DNA of 64,000 bases. It comes from an uncultured Gaiellales bacterium. GTDB lineage: Bacteria; Actinomycetota; Thermoleophilia; RBG-16-64-13. The notes beneath the pieces are model-generated. The model had not been told where the DNA came from. It did not search any database and saw only the letters and a list, made by a program, of their open reading frames with translations. Position numbers and translations under genes: made by a program. How positions within the stretch are numbered: position 1 is the first letter of the stretch; every line of letters starts with the position of its first letter. Location of the stretch: assembly GCA_964497095.1 (NCBI GenBank), contig CAZCCL010000001.1, forward strand, positions 348 through 64,347, in the 5' to 3' direction. Positions 3,391 to 34,556 of the stretch are shown in pieces.

Positions 3391-5016
3391 GTGATGGTCG
3401 CCCGCCCCCTTATGCTGTACGACACCACGCTGCGCGATGGGATGCAGCGTGAGGGGCTGAGCATCTCGGTCGACGAGAAGGTCCGTATCGCCGCTCGGAT
3501 CGCCGATGTGGGCGTCCACGTGATCGAAGGCGGCTTCCCTGGCTCCAACCCCAAGGACCAGGAGTTCTTCCACACATTGGAGAACGTGCCGCTGGCCGGG
3601 GCGGTGGTGGCGGCCTTCGGGATGACCAGGGGCAGGGGAGTGACCGCCGAGAATGACTTCCAGCTACGGGCATTGGCCGAGTGCTGGGCTCCGGTCGCGG
3701 CCGTCGTGGGTAAGACCTGGGACCTCCACCTGGAGAAGGTCCTCCGCGTGGACCGCGAGGAGAACCTGCGCATGATCGCCGAGTCGGTGGCCTTCCTGCG
3801 GGGCGAGGGGAAGCGCGTCTTCTACGACGCCGAGCACTTCTTCGACGCCTTTGCGGCCCACCCCGACTACGCCTTGGCCTGTCTCCGGGCTGCGGCGGAG
3901 GCCGGGGCGGAGGCCGTCTGTCTGTGCGACACCAACGGAGCCGCTCTTCCCACCCAAGTGGCCCAGGTGGTGGAGCGGGTGGGGTTGGAGGTGGGCGCCG
4001 TCTGCAGGGTGGGCATCCATACCCACAACGACGCGGGCTGCGCGGTGGCCAACTCCCTGGTCGCGGTGGAGCGGGGGGCCGACATGGTGCAGGGCACTAT
4101 CAACGGCTATGGCGAGCGGTGCGGCAACGCCGACCTCTGCGCCGTCATCCCGGCGCTGAAGCTCAAGATGGGCATCGACTGCGTATCGGACCGGGATCTG
4201 GCGCAACTCACCGATGCCGCTCATTTCGTGGCCGAACTCTGCAACGTGTCGCCCGACCCACATCAGCCCTACGTGGGTCGGAACGCCTTCGCCCACAAAG
4301 GGGGCATGCACGTAGCGGCGGTGGAGCGGGATCCCAGTACCTTCGAGCACGTTGATCCGGCCCTGGTAGGGAACGCTCCCCACGTGTTGGTGTCGGAGCT
4401 GTCCGGGCGCGCCACCATCGCCCAGCGGGCCCAAGAGCTGGGCTATCCCTTGGAGGACGACGAGGAACTGCTGGACCGGGTGCTGAACAGCGTGAAGCGG
4501 AAAGAGCATGTGGGCTATCACTACGAGGCCGCCGACGCCTCGTTCGAGTTGCTCCTGCGAACCGAGATGGGCCTGCAGGTGGAACTGTTCCATCTGGAGA
4601 CCTTCCGCATCATCGTGGAGAAGCGGGAAGACGGCGAGACGGTGAGCGAAGCCACGGTCAAGGTGCACGTGGGTGGGGACCGCTTCATAGAGACCGCCGA
4701 GGGCAACGGTCCGGTCAATGCCCTTGACAAGGCCCTGCGCATGGCCATCGAGCGCAGGTTCCCCGAGGTGCACGATATCCGCCTCGTGAACTATAAGGTG
4801 CGTATCCTGGACGAGGACAAGGGCACGGCCGCGAAGACCCGGGTGCTGATCGACAGCTCCGATGGTCGTGACAGCTGGGGCAGCGTGGGGGTGAACGTCA
4901 ACGTGGTCGAAGCCTCGTGGCAGGCTTTGGTGGACTCCATCACCTACGGTCTACTGCGTGTCGCCGGCCCAGGACCCGTTCCGGAAGCGGAGAGTGAGAA
5001 CGAGGAGAGCGCATGA
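3391..5016 (+). CDS. cimA: (R)-citramalate synthase / 2-isopropylmalate synthase family (LeuA-related, CimA-type)
   Basis: N-terminus LYDTTLRDGMQREGLSISVDEKVRIA…IEGGFPGSNPKDQEFF matches the citramalate-synthase branch of the LeuA/HMGL-like family. C-terminal LeuA-dimer-like region. Adjacent to ilvE. Confidence 0.75.
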   Translation: MMVARPLMLYDTTLRDGMQREGLSISVDEKVRIAARIADVGVHVIEGGFPGSNPKDQEFFHTLENVPLAGAVVAAFGMTRGRGVTAENDFQLRALAECWAPVAAVVGKTWDLHLEKVLRVDREENLRMIAESVAFLRGEGKRVFYDAEHFFDAFAAHPDYALACLRAAAEAGAEAVCLCDTNGAALPTQVAQVVERVGLEVGAVCRVGIHTHNDAGCAVANSLVAVERGADMVQGTINGYGERCGNADLCAVIPALKLKMGIDCVSDRDLAQLTDAAHFVAELCNVSPDPHQPYVGRNAFAHKGGMHVAAVERDPSTFEHVDPALVGNAPHVLVSELSGRATIAQRAQELGYPLEDDEELLDRVLNSVKRKEHVGYHYEAADASFELLLRTEMGLQVELFHLETFRIIVEKREDGETVSEATVKVHVGGDRFIETAEGNGPVNALDKALRMAIERRFPEVHDIRLVNYKVRILDEDKGTAAKTRVLIDSSDGRDSWGSVGVNVNVVEASWQALVDSITYGLLRVAGPGPVPEAESENEESA

Positions 5017-5813
5017 AGCTGGCCCGCGTGGAGTATGGAGGTGAGGTCTACGAGACCGCCGTCACCTGCGACGGATACATGGTCGAGGCGACGAGCGCCG
5101 GTCCCGGGGGCGCAGTCCCCGCCGGCACGGTGATCTCCGAGGCCGAGGCCCGTCTGTTGCCGCCGGCGGTCCCGGGAAAGATCCTGGGGGTGGGCTGGAA
5201 CTTCCGCGAGCACATCAAGGAGATGATCACCCGGCTCAGGGGGACGCCGACCCCCGAGCGCAAGGACGACCACGTGCCCCGTCCGCTGCTGTTCCTCAAG
5301 CCGCCCTCCAGCCTCATCGGGCACGGGGAGGCCATCATCTACCCCAAGGACGCTACGCGCGTGGAATACGAAGGTGAGCTGGCGGTGGTGATCGCCCGGG
5401 AGACGCGGAGGGTGACGCCCGAAGAGGCGCGACTGTGCGTGCTCGGCTGGACCTGCGCGAACGACGTGACGGAGCGCGATCTACAGCAGGAGGACAAGCA
5501 GTGGTGGCGGGCCAAGGGCTTCGACACCTTCGCCGTGGCCGGGCCCTATCTGGAGACCGAGGCTCCCCGACCCGAAGCCTGGCTGCGCACCCGGGTGAAC
5601 GGGGAGCTCCGCCAGGAAGCTCAGATGCTGGACATGATCCGCGACCCTTTCGAGATCATCTCCCTCGTCAGTCAGGCCATGACCCTCGAGCGGGGCGACA
5701 TGATCATGCTGGGGACCCCTTCGGGTGTGGGCGAACTGCACCCCGGGGACGAGGTGGAGGTCGAGATCGACGGGGTGGGCTACCTGCGCAATCCGGTCGA
5801 GTCGGAGCGGTAG
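5013..5813 (+). CDS. Fumarylacetoacetate hydrolase (FAH) family protein
   Basis: …FLKPPSSLIGHGEAIIYP…YEGELAVVIA…GWTCANDVTERDLQ…KGFDTFAVAGPYL… is an FAH/HpcE-like fold. ATG overlaps the cimA stop (ATGA). Confidence 0.8.
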   Translation: MKLARVEYGGEVYETAVTCDGYMVEATSAGPGGAVPAGTVISEAEARLLPPAVPGKILGVGWNFREHIKEMITRLRGTPTPERKDDHVPRPLLFLKPPSSLIGHGEAIIYPKDATRVEYEGELAVVIARETRRVTPEEARLCVLGWTCANDVTERDLQQEDKQWWRAKGFDTFAVAGPYLETEAPRPEAWLRTRVNGELRQEAQMLDMIRDPFEIISLVSQAMTLERGDMIMLGTPSGVGELHPGDEVEVEIDGVGYLRNPVESER

Positions 5814-6571
5814 TGAGCGGCCCGCCTTCCCGGGACGAGGCGTCGGACTTCTCTCGGGCGGGGCTCTCACCGGCTGGGAAGGAAGTCCTGGACCGTGTGG
5901 CCGGCGGGGCCTCGGCGGCTGAGGTGGCCGAGGCGCTGGCCCTCAGGCCTCATCGCGAGGGCGGGTTCTTCCGGGAGACCTACCGATCGCCGCTCACGCT
6001 CCCTACCAGTCTCGGCGAGCGCTGCCTCGCGACCTCGATCCTATACCTCCTGACCTGCGAGAGTCCCAGTCGTTTCCATCGGCTGCGTTCGGACGAGATC
6101 TGGTTCTACCACGCGGGCTGCCCTGTGGAACTGGCTTTGCTGCCGGTGGACCGCGGCCGGCAGCCGGAGGTGGTGCCGCGCCCAACGGGGCTGCAGTCAG
6201 CGTTGCGCCCAATGGGGCCGCAGGGAGCGTCGCGCCCAACGTGGCCGCCACGGCCGCCCGGTGGGCAAGAAGGCCGGCTGCGACTCCATCTCCTGGGCCC
6301 GGAGCGGCCCCAGGTGTTTGTTCCCGGCGGCTGGTGGTTGGGTGCGCGGGTGGCGCCCGGAGGACCGAGCGGTGAGGGAGCGGGTGGGCTGGGCGACGGA
6401 ATCGGCGACGGGGCGGGCGAAGACGAGAGGGCCGGAGCGGGACGGGACTGGACCCTGGTCGGCTGCGTGGTCACACCCGGTTTCGAGTACGAGGACTTCG
6501 AACCGGCGGAGCCCGCGTCCCTACTGCGGGAGTTCCCGGAAGCGGCGGACATCATCAGGGCTCTGACCTGA
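5813..6571 (+). CDS. Cupin-fold protein (DUF985/cupin_5 family) with internal 9-aa tandem repeat insertion
   Basis: …RPHREGGFFRETYRSP…ATSILYLLT…SRFHRLRSDEIWFYHAGCPVEL…DWTLVGCVVTPGFEYEDFE matches DUF985 cupins. GTG overlaps the FAH stop (TAGTG). The upstream part of ORF 5435..6571 is a shadow frame. Confidence 0.6.
   Translation: MSGPPSRDEASDFSRAGLSPAGKEVLDRVAGGASAAEVAEALALRPHREGGFFRETYRSPLTLPTSLGERCLATSILYLLTCESPSRFHRLRSDEIWFYHAGCPVELALLPVDRGRQPEVVPRPTGLQSALRPMGPQGASRPTWPPRPPGGQEGRLRLHLLGPERPQVFVPGGWWLGARVAPGGPSGEGAGGLGDGIGDGAGEDERAGAGRDWTLVGCVVTPGFEYEDFEPAEPASLLREFPEAADIIRALT
6178..6258 (+). repeat. Three tandem imperfect 27-bp repeats (GCGCCCAAYGKGGCYGC…) inside the cupin gene, encoding APNGAAVSV / APNGAAGSV / APNVAATAA
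   Basis: Direct reading of sequence 6178-6258; the repeats are in frame. Confidence 0.7.
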
Positions 6572-10478: not shown

Positions 10479-10508
10479 CGGCAGGTAGCGCATCCGGGCC
10501 GCAGCCGA

Positions 10509-10547
10509 CCCTGCCGGCGAAAGGTCATTCTGAAACGAGTTCTAAGG
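10509..10547 (+). promoter_or_regulatory. Copy A of conserved 39-nt motif CCCTGCCGGCGAAAGGTCATTCTGAAACGAGTTCTAAGG, 29 nt upstream of the Mo-oxidoreductase ATG
   Basis: 36/39 identical to 33417..33455 upstream of selD. Same orientation and same distance to the RBS and start codon. Confidence 0.5.
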
Positions 10548-10576: not shown

Positions 10577-13219
10577 ATGAACGGGGGCGGGTGCGGCGGC
10601 AAGGACACTCCCGGTTCGGAAGCGCCCGGCGCAGAAGTGCGCGGTGAGAGGACGCTCATCCGGGACATCAGCTTCTGTGGCGTGGCCAACGGCGCGAACT
10701 CCTGCCTGGTGGATATCGCCGGCGGCAAGATCCTGCGTATCCGGCCCATGCACTACGACTGGAAGTACCGCCTCGACGAACTGGGTCAATGGGAGATGCA
10801 CGCCCGGGGCATGACTTTCAGGCCCACCACCAAGAGCCTGATCCCTCCGCTCAGCCTCGCGTACAAGAAACGGGTGCAATCTCCAGCCCGGATCAGGTTC
10901 CCGATGAAGCGGGTCGACTTCGATCCAGACGGGGAGCGGAACATCCAGAACCGGGGTGTGAGCAAATACGTACGCATCTCCTGGGACGAGGCTCTCGACA
11001 TCATCACCGGCGAGATGCTGCGCGTTCGGGAGAAGTACGGGCCTACCGCCATCCTGTATCAGGCCGACCAGCACGGCGAGAACAAGGTCGTTCACGGTCC
11101 CCACGGCTGCGGGAGGAAGCTCCTACGGTTGTTCGGGGGGTTCACGCTCCAGGCCCGGCAGCCGGACAGCTGGGAAGGCTGGTGCTGGGGGGCGAAGCAC
11201 GTATGGGGCATGGAGCCGGTCGGGCAGCAGGTGCCACAGAGCAACTTGGTCTATGACATCGCCAAAAACACGGAGTTGTTGCTCTTCTGGGGCTGCGACC
11301 AGGAGACGACCACCTGGGGTTGGATGGGGCAACTACCCAGCCGTCTCAGCTTCTGGTTCACGGAGTTGGGGATCAGACAGGTCTATATCGCGCCCGACCT
11401 CAACTACGCGGCGGCGGTGCATGCCGACCGCTGGATCCCCATACTCCCCAACACCGATGCCGCTCTCTACCTGGCCATCGCCTATCAGTGGTTCGAGGAG
11501 GGCACCTACGACAAGGAGTACCTCGAGACCCACGCCTGCGGCGTCGAAGCATTCGAGGCATATGTGATGGGAGTGCAGGACGGGGTTCCCAAGAGCCCGG
11601 CGTGGGCGGCCCCGATTACCGGTGTGCCGTCGCGCATCATCAAAGCGCTGGCTCGGGAGTGGGCGTCCAAGCGAACGACGATCGCCATCGGGAACGGGGG
11701 ACCGATGATCCGCGGCCCCTACTCGAGCGAGCCGGCCCGCCTGCAGGTGCTCTGCCTGGCCATGCAGGGATTGGGCGGACCTGGGGCCAATCAGGCCAAG
11801 ATGGAGGATTGGGGCTTCATGGACGATCTGGCCCAGGTCGGGTGCCCCGAACCCGTCATGATTCCCAGCCTGTTCGCCGCCTACACCGGGGGCACCGGCG
11901 GCGAGACCAACCATGCCTTCGTGCCGAAGACCCTGGTCCCCAAAGCCATCATGGAGGGGAGCTGCGAGTGGTGGGGCAACGAGCACGAGATGGCCCCCCG
12001 GGAGAACCAGTTCGTCCACTACCGTTATCCGGCCGAGGGATGTTCCCGGATCCACATGGTCTGGACCGACTCCCCCTGTTTCATGACCTGCTGGAACGAC
12101 GGCAACAGCTTCGTGCGGGCCATGCGCCACCCCGATATCGAGTTCGTCTTCGCCCAGCATCCCTGGTGGGAAAACGATTGCCTCCTGGCCGACGTGATCC
12201 TGCCGGTCAGCACCAAGCTGGAGGAAGACGACATCAACGCCGACCTCTACAGCGGCCAGTCCATCCTGGTCTTCCCGGAGGAGCGATGCGTGGAACCGGT
12301 CGGGGAGTCCTTCAGCGACTACGAGATCGTCTGCAAGATTGCGGAGAGGCTGGGACTGCTCGAGGCATACACCGGGGGCAGGTCCGTCGACGACCTGAGG
12401 CGCCTGGGTTTCGAGACCTCCGGGGTCCGGGACCTGGCGGCCGGTGGGCCTGCAACGTGGGAGGAGTTCGTGGAGCAAGGCTATGTCACGCTTCCCACCA
12501 ACCCGGAGTGGGAGAAGGTGCCCGCCGGTCTCATCGACTTCTATCGCGACCCCGAGAGCCATCCGCTCAGCACTCCCACCGGCAAGATCGAGTTCTACGC
12601 TACCGGTCTGGCCGAGCACTTCCCCGACGACGAGGAGAGGCCGCCGGTACCCCGGTGGATCCCAGCCGGTCCCACCCACCAGGAGACGCTGGGGACAGAG
12701 CGGGCCAAGAGGTTTCCCCTGCTGGTGGTGTCGAACCACCCTCGTTGGGGCATACACGCCCAGCACGAAGACATCACGTGGCTCCGCGAGATCGAGACCT
12801 GCAAGGTCGGCGGCCCAGACGGCTACAAATACCAGCCTCTGTGGGTCCATCCCAGGGATGCAGCCACCCGGGGCATCGAGCACGGTGATGTGGTCATCAT
12901 CCACAACGAGCGCGGGGCGGTCTTGGCCGGCGCGTACGTGACCGAACGCATCATTCCTGGGGCGGTAAGCATGGACCACGGGGCCAAGTTCGACCCGATC
13001 GTCCCTGATGCTCTCGACCGGGGAGGCAACATCAACGCAATCGTACCCGGCCACACCACCTCCAAGAACGCGGTGGGCATGGCGGTGAGCGGTTTCCTGG
13101 CTGAGGTGGAGAAGGCCGACCTGGCGGGTCTCAGGGCCAAGTACGCCGAGGCATTTGCCCGGCCGTTCCACGCAGACGCCGGTCCGGGCGTGGAGGCATG
13201 GCTTGAAGCCGACACGTAG
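10577..13219 (+). CDS. Molybdopterin-dependent oxidoreductase, DMSO-reductase superfamily (catalytic subunit without N-terminal Fe-S motif; BisC/TorA/pyrogallol-transhydroxylase-like)
   Basis: 880-aa protein with molybdopterin-oxidoreductase-like organisation (…IAIGNGGPMIRG…, MDHGAKFDP…). GGAAGGAG RBS then ATG at 10577. No Tat motif, no CxxCxxxC. Confidence 0.65.
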   Translation: MNGGGCGGKDTPGSEAPGAEVRGERTLIRDISFCGVANGANSCLVDIAGGKILRIRPMHYDWKYRLDELGQWEMHARGMTFRPTTKSLIPPLSLAYKKRVQSPARIRFPMKRVDFDPDGERNIQNRGVSKYVRISWDEALDIITGEMLRVREKYGPTAILYQADQHGENKVVHGPHGCGRKLLRLFGGFTLQARQPDSWEGWCWGAKHVWGMEPVGQQVPQSNLVYDIAKNTELLLFWGCDQETTTWGWMGQLPSRLSFWFTELGIRQVYIAPDLNYAAAVHADRWIPILPNTDAALYLAIAYQWFEEGTYDKEYLETHACGVEAFEAYVMGVQDGVPKSPAWAAPITGVPSRIIKALAREWASKRTTIAIGNGGPMIRGPYSSEPARLQVLCLAMQGLGGPGANQAKMEDWGFMDDLAQVGCPEPVMIPSLFAAYTGGTGGETNHAFVPKTLVPKAIMEGSCEWWGNEHEMAPRENQFVHYRYPAEGCSRIHMVWTDSPCFMTCWNDGNSFVRAMRHPDIEFVFAQHPWWENDCLLADVILPVSTKLEEDDINADLYSGQSILVFPEERCVEPVGESFSDYEIVCKIAERLGLLEAYTGGRSVDDLRRLGFETSGVRDLAAGGPATWEEFVEQGYVTLPTNPEWEKVPAGLIDFYRDPESHPLSTPTGKIEFYATGLAEHFPDDEERPPVPRWIPAGPTHQETLGTERAKRFPLLVVSNHPRWGIHAQHEDITWLREIETCKVGGPDGYKYQPLWVHPRDAATRGIEHGDVVIIHNERGAVLAGAYVTERIIPGAVSMDHGAKFDPIVPDALDRGGNINAIVPGHTTSKNAVGMAVSGFLAEVEKADLAGLRAKYAEAFARPFHADAGPGVEAWLEADT

Positions 13220-13225
13220 CGGGGC

Positions 13226-14332
13226 TTAGGGTGTTTCCTCCTCGCGGAGGATGCGCAGGCCTTCCGTCCTGAGGCTGATACGGATCGGGGCCCCTTTGCT
13301 CAGGTCGAGTTGCTGATAGAAGTAGTTCGCGCCCCGCGCCTCCAACTCGTGGCCGTTCGTGAGAGACAACCGGATGACCCGCATCTCCCGCTGGTTCTCA
13401 ACACCGAGCACGGTGGCGTCCAGTTGATTGAAGGCCAGTCCGCCGAGCGCCGGCCGGTCGGGGTAGAGGATCTTGACGTCCTCCGGAGCGATGTAGACGG
13501 GGACTATCTCGCCCGGAGAGCTGGGCTGGGCAGGCGCGTACAGCTTGAGGCCGTCCCACACGAGGGTCACGTGGTCGGCGGTCGCGGCGGAGACCCGGGC
13601 GTGGAAGATGTTGCGGATGGCAAGCACTTCAGCCGCCCGCATGCTGGAGGGCCGACGGAACACGTCACCCACCGCTCCGACCTGCTGTAGCTCCCCGTCC
13701 CGCAAGACCGCGAGTCGGTCACCGAGCGCGAAGGCGTCCTCCACGTTGTGAGTGACGCAGATCACTATGAGGCTTCTCTCCACCTGGAGCGCCCTCAGAT
13801 CGGTCCTGAGCCTCTCCCGAAGCCCCGGGTCGAGTGCGGAGAAGGGCTCGTCGAGCAGCAGGACTTCGGGGTCCCTGGCCAGGGCTCGGGCGATGGCTAC
13901 TCGTTGCTGCTGCCCCCCGGAAAGCTGGTGCGGGAGACGGTCGACCAGCGGACCCAGGCCCATCTGGTCGACCAGAGTCAGGGCCCGCTCGCGGCTGTTC
14001 GAATCGCGACCCAGCGGATAGCGCACGTTCTGAAGGACGGTCAGGTGGGGGAAGAGCGCGTAGCTCTGGAAGACGTACCCGATGCCGCGTTTGCGCGCGG
14101 GCAGATTCACATGCTCTCCGGCCGTTCCTCGCCGGAACAAGACCTGGCCGTCCAGGACTATCTCTCCCTCGTCGGGTGACACCAGGCCGGCTATCGACTC
14201 CAAGGTCATGGTCTTGCCGGATCCGGACGGACCGAAGAGGACCAGGACCTCCTCTTCCACCTGAAGACTCAGATCCAAAGTGAAAGAGGGCAGCCGTCTG
14301 TGGATATCCACGGTAAGTTGACGTTCTTTCAT
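13226..14332 (-). CDS. ABC transporter ATP-binding protein, ModC/WtpC-like with C-terminal TOBE/MOP domain
   Basis: Walker A GPSGSGKT, signature [15 protein letters not shown], Walker [12 protein letters not shown], then a roughly 110-aa TOBE-like tail. ATG at 14332 with AGGAG RBS. The upstream part of the called ORF is rejected. Confidence 0.75.
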
Positions 14333-14627
14333 GCGCTCCTGACAAGACGCAGAGCGTGGCGCGGGCGGGTGCGACGGTCCCGCCACCAGCCGGTTACCCC
14401 GCGGCCGGATCGGGCCTGCCCCGGCCGGACCCTGACCGTCCCGAGCCTCCTTCCTGGTTCCTCCGGTTATCCGCCGAGAAGTATAACGACTGGGAAACCC
14501 CATTCCTAGCTCCGTTGGACGGCGAAGGACGGATCCGGCACCGGGGCCCGCCGCGATCGCCGGGAGCAGCCGGTACGGTATTCTTAGGCGGCGTGCCCGA
14601 GCGATCCGACGGTCCGGAGTCCGCAGC

Positions 14628-32708: not shown

Positions 32709-33161
32709 CTAGTCTTCCCGGCAGGCGCTGCAGAGGCCGAAGACTGTGACTTCGCGGGTCGCAAAACCCTGGTCTTCAAGCAAGGTGGTACCCAGGCCTC
32801 CCAGATCCTCGTCGTGCACGTGGGTCACCCGACCGCACGTTTCGCAGACCAGGTGGTGATGGGGGACCTCTTCTTCCACCTCGAAGAAGCGCCGAGTGGG
32901 ACCGAGGTGGGTCTCCCGGACCAGATGAAGGTCGACCAGCAACTCCAGAGTGCGGTACACGGTGGACATGTTGATGTTCGGAAACCGGTCCTGCACCCGG
33001 GCACAGACCTCTTCGGCGCTCATATGCGAGCCGTGCTCGCGGAGCACATCCCATACCAAAGTGCGCTGGGGGGTCAGTCTGTACCCCATCTCGTGGAGCG
33101 TGCGGGTGGCATGATGGGTCACGGTTCTTGCAAGCTTATTGCAATAGCCTTTTGTTGTCAA
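32709..33161 (-). CDS. nur: Fur-family metalloregulator, probably nickel-responsive Nur
   Basis: Fur-family DNA-binding helix (…YRLTPQRTLVWDVL…) and metal-site HHH/Cys residues (…HHHLVCETCGRVTHVHDE…). Directly precedes cbiMNQO. Own promoter carries a Nur box. The start is ambiguous: TTG at 33161 or GTG at 33122. Confidence 0.7.
   Translation of the reverse strand: MTTKGYCNKLARTVTHHATRTLHEMGYRLTPQRTLVWDVLREHGSHMSAEEVCARVQDRFPNINMSTVYRTLELLVDLHLVRETHLGPTRRFFEVEEEVPHHHLVCETCGRVTHVHDEDLGGLGTTLLEDQGFATREVTVFGLCSACRED
33128..33144 (-). promoter_or_regulatory. Nur-box-type operator TTGCAA-N5-TTGCAA overlapping the nur promoter -10
   Basis: Perfect TTGCAA-gctta-TTGCAA read from the sequence, matching the published Nur box (tTGCaa-N5-ttGCAA). 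Located in the nur leader. Confidence 0.55.
33133..33161 (-). promoter_or_regulatory. Putative nur promoter TTGACA-17 nt-TAAGCT (valid only if nur starts at GTG 33122)
   Basis: Perfect -35 hexamer with 17-nt spacer read on the minus strand. Under the TTG-start model the -35 is instead codons 1-2. Confidence 0.3.
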
Positions 33162-33280
33162 CAGCAGTCAGGATGCGGGGGACCTTCGCCCCCTTGGCCC
33201 CCAGCGCCTCGGTCTGCTAGTGTCTCGGGTGCTCGCGTATGTGCGGTCCAGGACGCCTACGCAGGCCTCTGAAGGAGCGG

Positions 33281-33314
33281 CGCCTGAGAACTCGTTTCAG
33301 AGTGGCATCTCGGC
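33281..33314 (-). promoter_or_regulatory. Copy C (inverted, partial) of the conserved motif; core CTCTGAAACGAGTTCTCAGG on the minus strand
   Basis: Reverse complement of 33281..33304 matches the cores of copies A and B (14-nt identical run CTGAAACGAGTTCT). Confidence 0.4.
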
Positions 33315-33416
33315 CACCGAGGCCGCGCTTGGCGGCCGGACGCTTCGTTCTTTCGTCGCGTCCGTGTCTCCAGAACGCCTGCTTCCTGCGTCCTTGCCGC
33401 GGGCATGCCAATCTCA

Positions 33417-33455
33417 CCCTGCTGGCGAAAGGTCATTCTGAAACGAGCTCTGAGG
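33417..33455 (+). promoter_or_regulatory. Copy B of conserved 39-nt motif CCCTGCTGGCGAAAGGTCATTCTGAAACGAGCTCTGAGG, 33 nt upstream of the selD ATG
   Basis: See copy A. Followed by AAGGAGG RBS. Confidence 0.5.
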
Positions 33456-33488
33456 GCTATCGAACGGGAAGAAAGGAGGTGATGGTCG

Positions 33489-34556
33489 ATGGAGGCGATC
33501 CCGAGGCTGACCACGCTCTCGCACGGTTCGGGCTGAGCGTGCAAATTGGGCCCCAAGGACTTGGGGCAGGTGATGGAGATGCTGCCACGCGTGGGTGATC
33601 CCGCTCTGCTCGTGGGCGCGGATACGTTGGACGATGCGGCCGTCTACCGCGTGACGGGTGAGATCGCCCTGGTGCAGACGATCGATTTCTTCACGCCGGT
33701 GGTCGACGACCCCTACGATTTCGGTCGTATCGCCGCCGCCAACGCTTTCTCCGACGTCTACGCCATGGGCGGCCGGCCCCTGACCGCGCTCAATATTGTG
33801 TGCTTCCCTTCGGGGGTCCTGCCGTTGGAAACCCTGGGGAGGATCCTGCAGGGCGGGGCGGAGACGGCTCGGCTCGCCGGGGCTACCATCGTTGGTGGGC
33901 ACACCATCGACGACCCCGAACCCAAGTATGGGCTGGCCGTCACCGGCGTGCTGGAGCCGGGCCATGAGCTGACAAACGCCGGCGCCAGGCCAGGCGACGC
34001 CCTCATCCTCACGAAGCCGTTGGGTACCGGGGTGATCTCGACCGCCATCAAGCAGGGGACCGCCTCTGCCGAGGCCATCGCGGCCGCCACCGCCTCCATG
34101 GCGACTCTCAATCGGGGCGGGGCCGAGGTAGCTCGTGCTTGCGGTGCCCATGCGCTCACGGACATCACCGGCTTCGGCCTCCTGGGCCACCTCAGCGAGT
34201 TGTGCCGGGCGAGCGGGGTGCTCGCCGAGGTGTGGTACGACCGGTTGCCCCTGCTGGTCCAAGCAGAAGCACTGGCCCAGACCGGGGTCGTCCCGGGCGG
34301 CACGAGACGCAACCTGGAGTATGTGCAGCCCTGGACGGCGTTCGACCCCGAGTTGGAGCCTTGGCAGCACCTCCTGTGCGCCGATGCGCAGACGTCCGGC
34401 GGTCTCATTCTTGTGGTCTCGCCTGAGAAGGTGCCGGAAGCACTCGAGGCGCTGACGGCCGGAGATACCCCGGCTGCGGTGGTCATCGGCCGGGTCATCA
34501 CCAGGGAGGAAGCAAAGGGGTCCCTACTCACAGTCGGATTCGCCGGAACCGGGTGA
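33489..34556 (+). CDS. selD: Selenophosphate synthetase (selenide, water dikinase), selenocysteine-containing form; UGA-Sec at 33534-33536
   Basis: With ATG at 33489 the N-terminus reads MEAIPRLTTLSHGSG-U-ACKLGPK…, matching the SelD consensus SHGAG(C/U)GCK with TGA at the Cys17 position. The rest is a full AIR-synthase-like SelD body. The ORF caller started at 33546. Confidence 0.9.
33550..33567 (+). other. SECIS-like hairpin GCCCCAA-GGAC-TTGGGGC, 13 nt downstream of the selD UGA
   Basis: 7-bp perfect stem with GGAC loop read from the sequence. Confidence 0.6.

Follow-up and report, generated by a model that had tools for sequence, protein, structure and literature searches.

The inverted repeat upstream of selD

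What is the inverted repeat that lies between selD and the divergent gene of a Fur-family regulator, and why does its core recur at 10.5 kb, before the gene of a molybdenum enzyme? We addressed these questions in the window, by which we mean the whole 64-kb stretch of DNA that was analysed. Here, selD (selenide, water dikinase; TIGR00476, E = 5.6e-111) occupies positions 33489-34556 of the forward strand, with its start codon ATG at 33489 and the Shine-Dalgarno sequence GGAGG at 33475-33479. The divergent Fur-family gene, which lies beside cbiM/Q/O, occupies 32709-33122 of the reverse strand (PF01475 in syntenic loci). A palindrome, TTGCAAGCTTATTGCAATAGC (33127-33151), is found immediately upstream of the start of this gene and is kept in two related loci, L059 and L060 (see below). 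It is likely a Fur-type box, predicted to be autoregulatory, near the cbiM/Q/O genes of a nickel/cobalt transporter.

A repeat search confirmed that an inverted repeat exists upstream of selD. Its arms, at 33283-33312 and 33426-33455, are 30 nt each, 80% complementary and separated by 113 nt. The original prediction, which placed the arms at 33281-33304 and 33436-33462, had identified the same repeat, with coordinates a few bases off. The 14-mer CTGAAACGAGTTCT matches exactly at 10530-10543 (forward strand) and 33287-33300 (reverse strand), with a third match, containing one mismatch, at 33438-33451 (forward strand). This count of 3 in the window compares to an expectation of 0.27 and was reached in 1 of 100 shuffles. 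The core does therefore recur at 10.5 kb, as had been claimed, in a segment termed copy A. The likeness between copy A and the selD-proximal arm is far longer than the predicted core, however, extending over a block of ~38 nt, ACCCTGCYGGCGAAAGGTCATTCTGAAACGAGYTCTRAGG; the distal (left) arm has only a 22-nt core in common with the proximal arm and copy A. Nor do the arms take up all of the spacer from the Fur-type box to the ribosome-binding site of selD, as the same prediction had it. About 136 nt lie between the box and the left arm, and the 3-bp duplication that follows the repeat on the right (see below) ends 21 nt before the Shine-Dalgarno sequence. When the region was folded, a stable structure was obtained. 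The 169-nt segment 33285-33453, which comprises the element described below and the TGA repeats on both sides of it, has a predicted energy of -77.6 kcal/mol (z = -4.9), equalled by 0 of 200 shuffles.

An empty site in a related genome

The closest relatives of SelD were traced to their contigs, giving three loci for comparison. One of these (L061) comes from the same population as the window, while L059 and L060 encode SelD proteins that are 89% and 81% identical, respectively, to that of the window. In both L059 and L060, the cbiM/Q/O-fur-selD-rsbW-type synteny is kept. Neither L059 nor L060 has the repeat in its orthologous intergenic region, so the pairing is not conserved; for L060, the element was looked for in an alignment of the fur-selD intergenic region. 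In L059, the exact empty site can be read, as GCC-CGA-GGGCT, compared to GCC-TGA-[163 bp]-TGA-GGGCT in the window. Removal of 33288-33453 leaves a gapless junction, with GGCGCC-TGA-GGGCTATCGA in the window against GGTGCC-CGA-GGGCTGTCGA in L059. A longer alignment across the junction pairs ...GGCGCC-TGA-GGGCTATCGAACGGG... of the window with ...GGTGCC-CGA-GGGCTGTCG-ATGGG... of L059. The aligned junctions bear the classical mark of an insertion with duplication of 3 bp. By the same comparison, the insertion before selD is recent, later than the split from the relative with the 89%-identical SelD, the closest one sampled. Elements of this kind can serve to mark recent divergence.

A 163-bp element bounded by terminal inverted repeats

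The inserted DNA is a full-length, non-coding MITE of 163 bp, GAACTCG...CGAGCTC, at 33288-33450 (forward strand), as delimited by a family profile, by alignment and by its absence from L059 and L060. On either side of it lies one copy of the 3-bp target-site duplication TGA (left, 33285-33287; right, 33451-33453), and a single CGA takes their place at the L059 empty site. The terminal inverted repeats, GAACTCGTTTCAGAGTGGC at 33288-33306 and GTCATTCTGAAACGAGCTC at 33432-33450, form a terminal helix with 18 pairs over the 19-nt ends, and the termini are nearly invariant in the family. In an nhmmer search with the family profile, the element corresponds to profile positions 1-162 (E = 5e-33). In the 64-kb window as a whole, the family's profile HMM matches nothing besides 33288-33450 and 10508-10542; that is, the window holds one full and one 5'-truncated copy. 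No transposase homology is seen in the selD element, and the listing of open reading frames contains only long spurious high-GC frames that cross it.

These data establish the boundaries of the selD element, its duplication, its empty site and its membership of the family. The element has the traits of a MITE, namely small size without a transposase gene, terminal inverted repeats, a target-site duplication and an empty site. We conclude, with a probability of about 0.93, that the inverted repeat before selD is the pair of terminal repeats of a MITE that is 163 bp long and akin to insertion sequences of the IS5 family. Among the readings originally offered was a MITE-like element with a solo end before the Mo enzyme, and it is this one that stands, given the target-site duplication, the empty site, dozens of copies bounded by terminal inverted repeats (TIRs), and a copy A that corresponds to profile positions 128-162. 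The selD element is an ordinary kind of genomic parasite, neither a regulator site nor a riboswitch.

Copies of the element and their target duplication

A collection of genomes, one per species, was scanned with the pattern AYTCTGAAACGAGYTCTNAGG. This yielded 58 loci, almost all of them in MAGs of the Gaiellales/Thermoleophilia. MAG MFD00032.bin.2.39 has 10 of these loci, and several other MAGs have 3. One caveat here is that, through the ...NAGG demanded by the pattern, each match has one biased flank and the apparent proximity to Shine-Dalgarno-like sequences is inflated. At these loci, the conserved sequence extends inward from the motif and breaks off sharply beyond ...GAGTTC-TNA. Most loci have a second, inverted copy, such that the outer ends are 161-166 bp apart, and hence additional TIR-bounded elements do exist in related genomes. 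We aligned 27 full-length copies (33288-33450 of the window and 26 others) of 153-166 nt, all but one of them 161-166 nt. They align over their whole length with a mean column identity of 78%, and the termini are near-invariant. Elements of the family adjoin unrelated genes, in either orientation.

The flanking triplets were analysed in 43 non-redundant TIR-bounded elements, with 10,000 permutations as a control. Identical 3-bp flanks were seen in 22 of the 43, every one of them TNA (10 TTA, 9 TAA, 2 TGA and 1 TCA), compared to a mean of 9.2 and a maximum of 18 in the permutations. We also considered CCTNAGG as part of a longer TIR and rejected it, as the central N is identical on both sides rather than complementary; this reverse-complement model fits only 2 of the 43 elements. 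The flank triplet is therefore a target duplication and not inverted repeat. About half of the family copies have no perfect duplication, which is expected of old copies but also makes this the weakest of our statistics. The unbiased flank suggests that the target resembles C-TNA-G, with the central triplet duplicated.

What of the possibility, raised first in the original prediction, that the arms are oppositely oriented sites for one transcription factor, acting at the fur-like gene and at selD, to which a third site before the Mo enzyme would be added? Three copies of the 22-nt core in two promoter-proximal regions, and the weak internal dyad symmetry of this core, are what such an operator pair might look like. 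However, the repeat is absent from the L059 and L060 spacers, although the Fur-type box and the promoter-like element (see below) are conserved there. Moreover, what is conserved is not a site but the 163-bp element in full, with its TNA duplication, and the element is found beside unrelated genes and inside other mobile contexts. We give this reading hardly any credence.

A text search of the literature for papers on MITEs in Thermoleophilia found none, and the family is probably undescribed. Our analysis documents, for a poorly studied class of soil actinobacteria, a family of MITEs and cargo cassettes with IS5-type relatives. Such elements are a source of assembly breaks and of spurious "conserved motifs" in analyses of MAGs. 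In one MAG, two contigs (L046 and L047, both JBBRMM01) carry ends of the family at their edges, with an identical, non-MITE interior. This suggests a longer multi-copy element that has the same termini and broke the assembly.

Hairpin structure

Most members of the family form a hairpin along their whole length, with a median of 42 mirror pairs and a median z of -5.7, where the shuffles behind this z preserved mononucleotide content only. In RNAalifold, the terminal helix is invariant and shows no covariation, and compensatory changes are seen in 7 pairs of the central stem. The selD copy keeps only the terminal helix (18 mirror pairs versus the family median of 42). This suggests that it is an older, decaying copy in which the internal palindrome has already decayed.

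Another of the early readings was a helix in the selD leader. In its strong form, this would be a dedicated cis-regulatory RNA, riboswitch-like or selenium-responsive, closed by a helix of ~20 bp. The significantly stable fold and its position upstream of selD and of a Mo enzyme speak for such an RNA, but the closing helix is invariant, without compensatory changes, and copy A lacks the 5' arm altogether. Rfam searches returned nothing relevant, whether for the whole window at the gathering threshold or for 33100-33700 at the permissive E <= 10. The structure is not conserved in the orthologues, whose spacers lack it; the empty site contradicts the reading, and the same element flanks many unrelated genes. 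A dedicated regulatory RNA is in our estimation extremely improbable. Because the repeat is missing from orthologous intergenic regions and has no Rfam match, we regard the regulator-site and leader-RNA readings as refuted.

Copy A and the gene of the Mo enzyme

Copy A (10508-10542, forward strand) matches profile positions 128-162 only (E = 1.1e-7), and no left partner was found for it within 3 mismatches. For these reasons, we identify copy A as a solo right end that lacks its 5' part and belongs to the same MITE subfamily. It agrees with the right end of the selD copy at 38 of 40 positions and is followed by TAA (10543-10545). It is a second insertion of the same subfamily, of which all but the last ~35 nt have been lost. 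Copy A sits in the 98-nt spacer that separates dnaE from the gene of a BisC-family molybdopterin S/N-oxide reductase, whose ATG (10577) follows 34 nt further on. Since the motif common to selD and the Mo-enzyme gene is debris of a mobile element, it is no sign of co-regulation or of selenium or molybdenum biology. For annotation of the window, this removes a false lead, that of a regulatory motif linking selD to a molybdoenzyme.

An ECF-sigma promoter was considered because of TGAAAC and rejected: downstream of the motif, the copies have no sequence in common, and conservation breaks off at the very edge of the element. The reductase itself (10577-13219) scores below every equivalog cut-off, and its gene is adjoined by that of a ModC/WtpC-like ABC ATPase (13226-14347). 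Homologues of the reductase are encoded in L021 and L048, away from the MITE copies present there.

Autonomous relatives and a possible source of transposase

With no coding capacity of its own, the selD element must be moved in trans. No IS5-type transposase was found within the 64-kb window, and no transposase was found when the interiors of solo ends and clustered open reading frames were inspected across the genome loci. Autonomous relatives came instead from a chance tblastn match in L109 and a weak blastn match to a Streptomyces plasmid. In all, three IS5-family elements of ~900 bp were found (in L109, L117 and L118). The one in L109 reads TTA-GAGCTCCTTTCACAATGA...TCATTACGAAAGGAGCTC-TTA with its flanks and has two overlapping frames, matching DUF4096 (E = 1.4e-26) and DDE_Tnp_1 (E = 1.2e-22); OrfB also has a weak match to DDE_Tnp_4 (E = 8e-4). 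On the same contig, a remnant of the OrfA of this element comes after an end of the MITE type. The element of L118 (1458-2361) is TTA-GAGCTCCTTTCGGAATGAAGG...TCATTGTGAAAGGAGCTC-TTA. In L117 (1421-2320), the right end, ...TGAAACGAGTTC, is identical to the MITE terminus, and the flanks, TTA and TAA, are not identical. The Streptomyces plasmid carries an element annotated as an IS5-family transposase, TAA-CTGATCGTTTCAGAATGA...TTCTGAAACGATCAG-TAA.

Over the terminal ~18 nt, the IS elements and the MITE are identical at 15-17 of 18 positions. Derivation of the MITE interior from IS ends was considered too, but the similarity stops after ~20 nt and the interiors are unrelated. Among the IS elements recovered, no autonomous IS has exactly the ends of the MITE. 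A TIR-bounded element of 1557 bp in L010 was rejected as a candidate for the autonomous parent. This element (4597-6153) is a MITE copy with a TTA/TTA duplication, interrupted by a nested IS256-family insertion (Transposase_mut, E = 2e-121).

A 3-bp TNA duplication together with ends that start with GA is a trait of the IS427/IS1031 type of the IS5 family, and the family described here shows both. In a study of actinobacterial IS elements (PMC2516522), a 3-nt target characterises the IS1031 group of this family of insertion sequences. From this trait and from the near-identical ends of IS5-family elements, we infer that an IS5-family DDE transposase of the L109/L117/L118 type binds the ends of the MITE and inserts it into TNA. 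An IS5-family IS of ~900 bp and of the IS427/IS1031 type would supply, in trans, the DDE transposase that recognises these ends, of ~19-21 bp (GAACTCGTTTCAGAATGA...). Cut-and-paste insertion into a target like C-TNA-G would then duplicate the central TNA. In the case of selD, the element landed in a TGA between the conserved promoter-like region of selD and its ribosome-binding site, at a time when this lineage had already parted from the closest relative sampled.

Cargo cassettes with the same ends

Metagenomes were scanned with a non-MITE subterminal variant, and this recovered mostly cargo cassettes, not IS elements. In soil metagenomes and MAGs, the same ends and TNA duplication bound cassettes of 84-1031 bp. 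Many of these contain a single passenger gene and no transposase, with the passenger-carrying cassettes being 416-1031 bp in length. The passengers include a GNAT acetyltransferase and a cupin, as well as two proteins with no Pfam match, one of ~100 aa and the other of ~180 aa with a hydrophobic N-terminus. Passenger cassettes of 416-730 bp are seen in L022 (2158-2573) and L039 (1226-1652), and also in L066, L092, L078, L080, L081, L107, L097 and L073. The cargo cassettes resemble mobile insertion cassettes.

Comparison to known elements

The mobile insertion cassettes to which we liken the cargo cassettes are those of the Bacillus cereus MIC231 type; MIC231 derives from IS231, of the IS4 family. 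The selD copy, with the same ends, has no cargo. As for the MITE itself, the closest parallels drawn here are Correia/NEMIS of Neisseria, RUP of pneumococcus and ERIC/IRU of enterobacteria. Like the selD element, these are non-coding and 100-200 bp long, with TIRs and a short target duplication; they occur as many dispersed intergenic copies, often just upstream of genes, and, once transcribed, an entire element is able to form a long hairpin. The selD element differs from them in sequence, in host clade (Gaiellales/Thermoleophilia and relatives) and in parent family. The target duplication of Correia elements is TA, whereas that of the selD element is TNA (3 bp). IS427/IS1031-type members of the IS5 family (e.g. 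the actinobacterial IS1237/ISLxx6) have ends that start with GA, as do those of the MITE. The IS5-type elements of ~900 bp encode DUF4096 and DDE_Tnp_1 in two frames, in contrast to the MITE, which has no transposase. On these features, we would place the MITE with the IS5 family, IS427/IS1031 type (either subgroup). Eukaryotic Tourist MITEs and PIF-Harbinger elements have a 3-bp duplication, TWA/TNA, and a transposase superfamily related to IS5. The 3-bp duplication is thus alike; here, though, the host is bacterial and there is no second, Myb-like open reading frame. General properties of bacterial MITEs have been described (PMC10969869).

Possible effect on selD

Alignment of the window with L059 and L060 revealed a promoter-like element, TTGGCC-18 nt-TAGTGT, at 33194-33223 (forward strand), around which the spacer diverges among the three sequences. 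It was not picked up by a scan for the sigma-70 consensus. The conservation of this element makes it the probable promoter of selD. If so, the MITE would span approximately +57 to +220 of a leader of ~250 nt, and hence it is probably co-transcribed, as part of the selD 5' UTR. Scans found no sigma-70-like promoter or terminator in or near the selD copy or copy A, and ARAGORN detected no tRNA or tmRNA.

Could the MITE have been exapted, acting on selD (and copy A on the Mo-enzyme gene) through a hairpin in the leader that changes how stable the mRNA is or how well it is translated, or through an outward promoter? Other bacterial MITEs are known to provide promoters and to act at the RNA level (PMC10969869). 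Here, the position between the conserved promoter-like element and the ribosome-binding site, where the MITE is probably transcribed, is compatible with such a role, as are the stable terminal helix (with the energy and z given above) and the fact that both copies in the window end 34-35 nt before a start codon. The family, too, keeps its whole-length hairpin, with compensatory changes in the central stem. On the other hand, the scans found neither promoter nor terminator at either copy, the selD copy has lost most of its internal palindrome, and the selD genes of relatives work without the element. Furthermore, nearness to ribosome-binding sites is partly an artefact of the ...NAGG pattern and the CTNAG target. 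We consider exaptation unlikely. Most likely, we infer, the effect of the MITE on selD expression is neutral or mild. A broader proposal can be made: that this is a large, apparently undescribed TIR family of soil Thermoleophilia/Gaiellales, with a hairpin kept by compensatory changes and ends that mobilise single-gene cargo, and that a number of copies beside ribosome-binding sites, perhaps among them that of the selD leader, may have been co-opted as regulatory modules acting at the RNA level. Taken as a whole, this proposal is speculative and quite unlikely.

Within selD itself, an in-frame TGA at 33534-33536 (SHGSG-U-ACKLGPKD) is kept in L059, L060 and L061, which indicates a predicted selenocysteine-containing SelD. 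The hairpin-capable segment GGGCCCCAAGGACTTGGGGC (33547-33566), which follows this TGA, could be a SECIS element.
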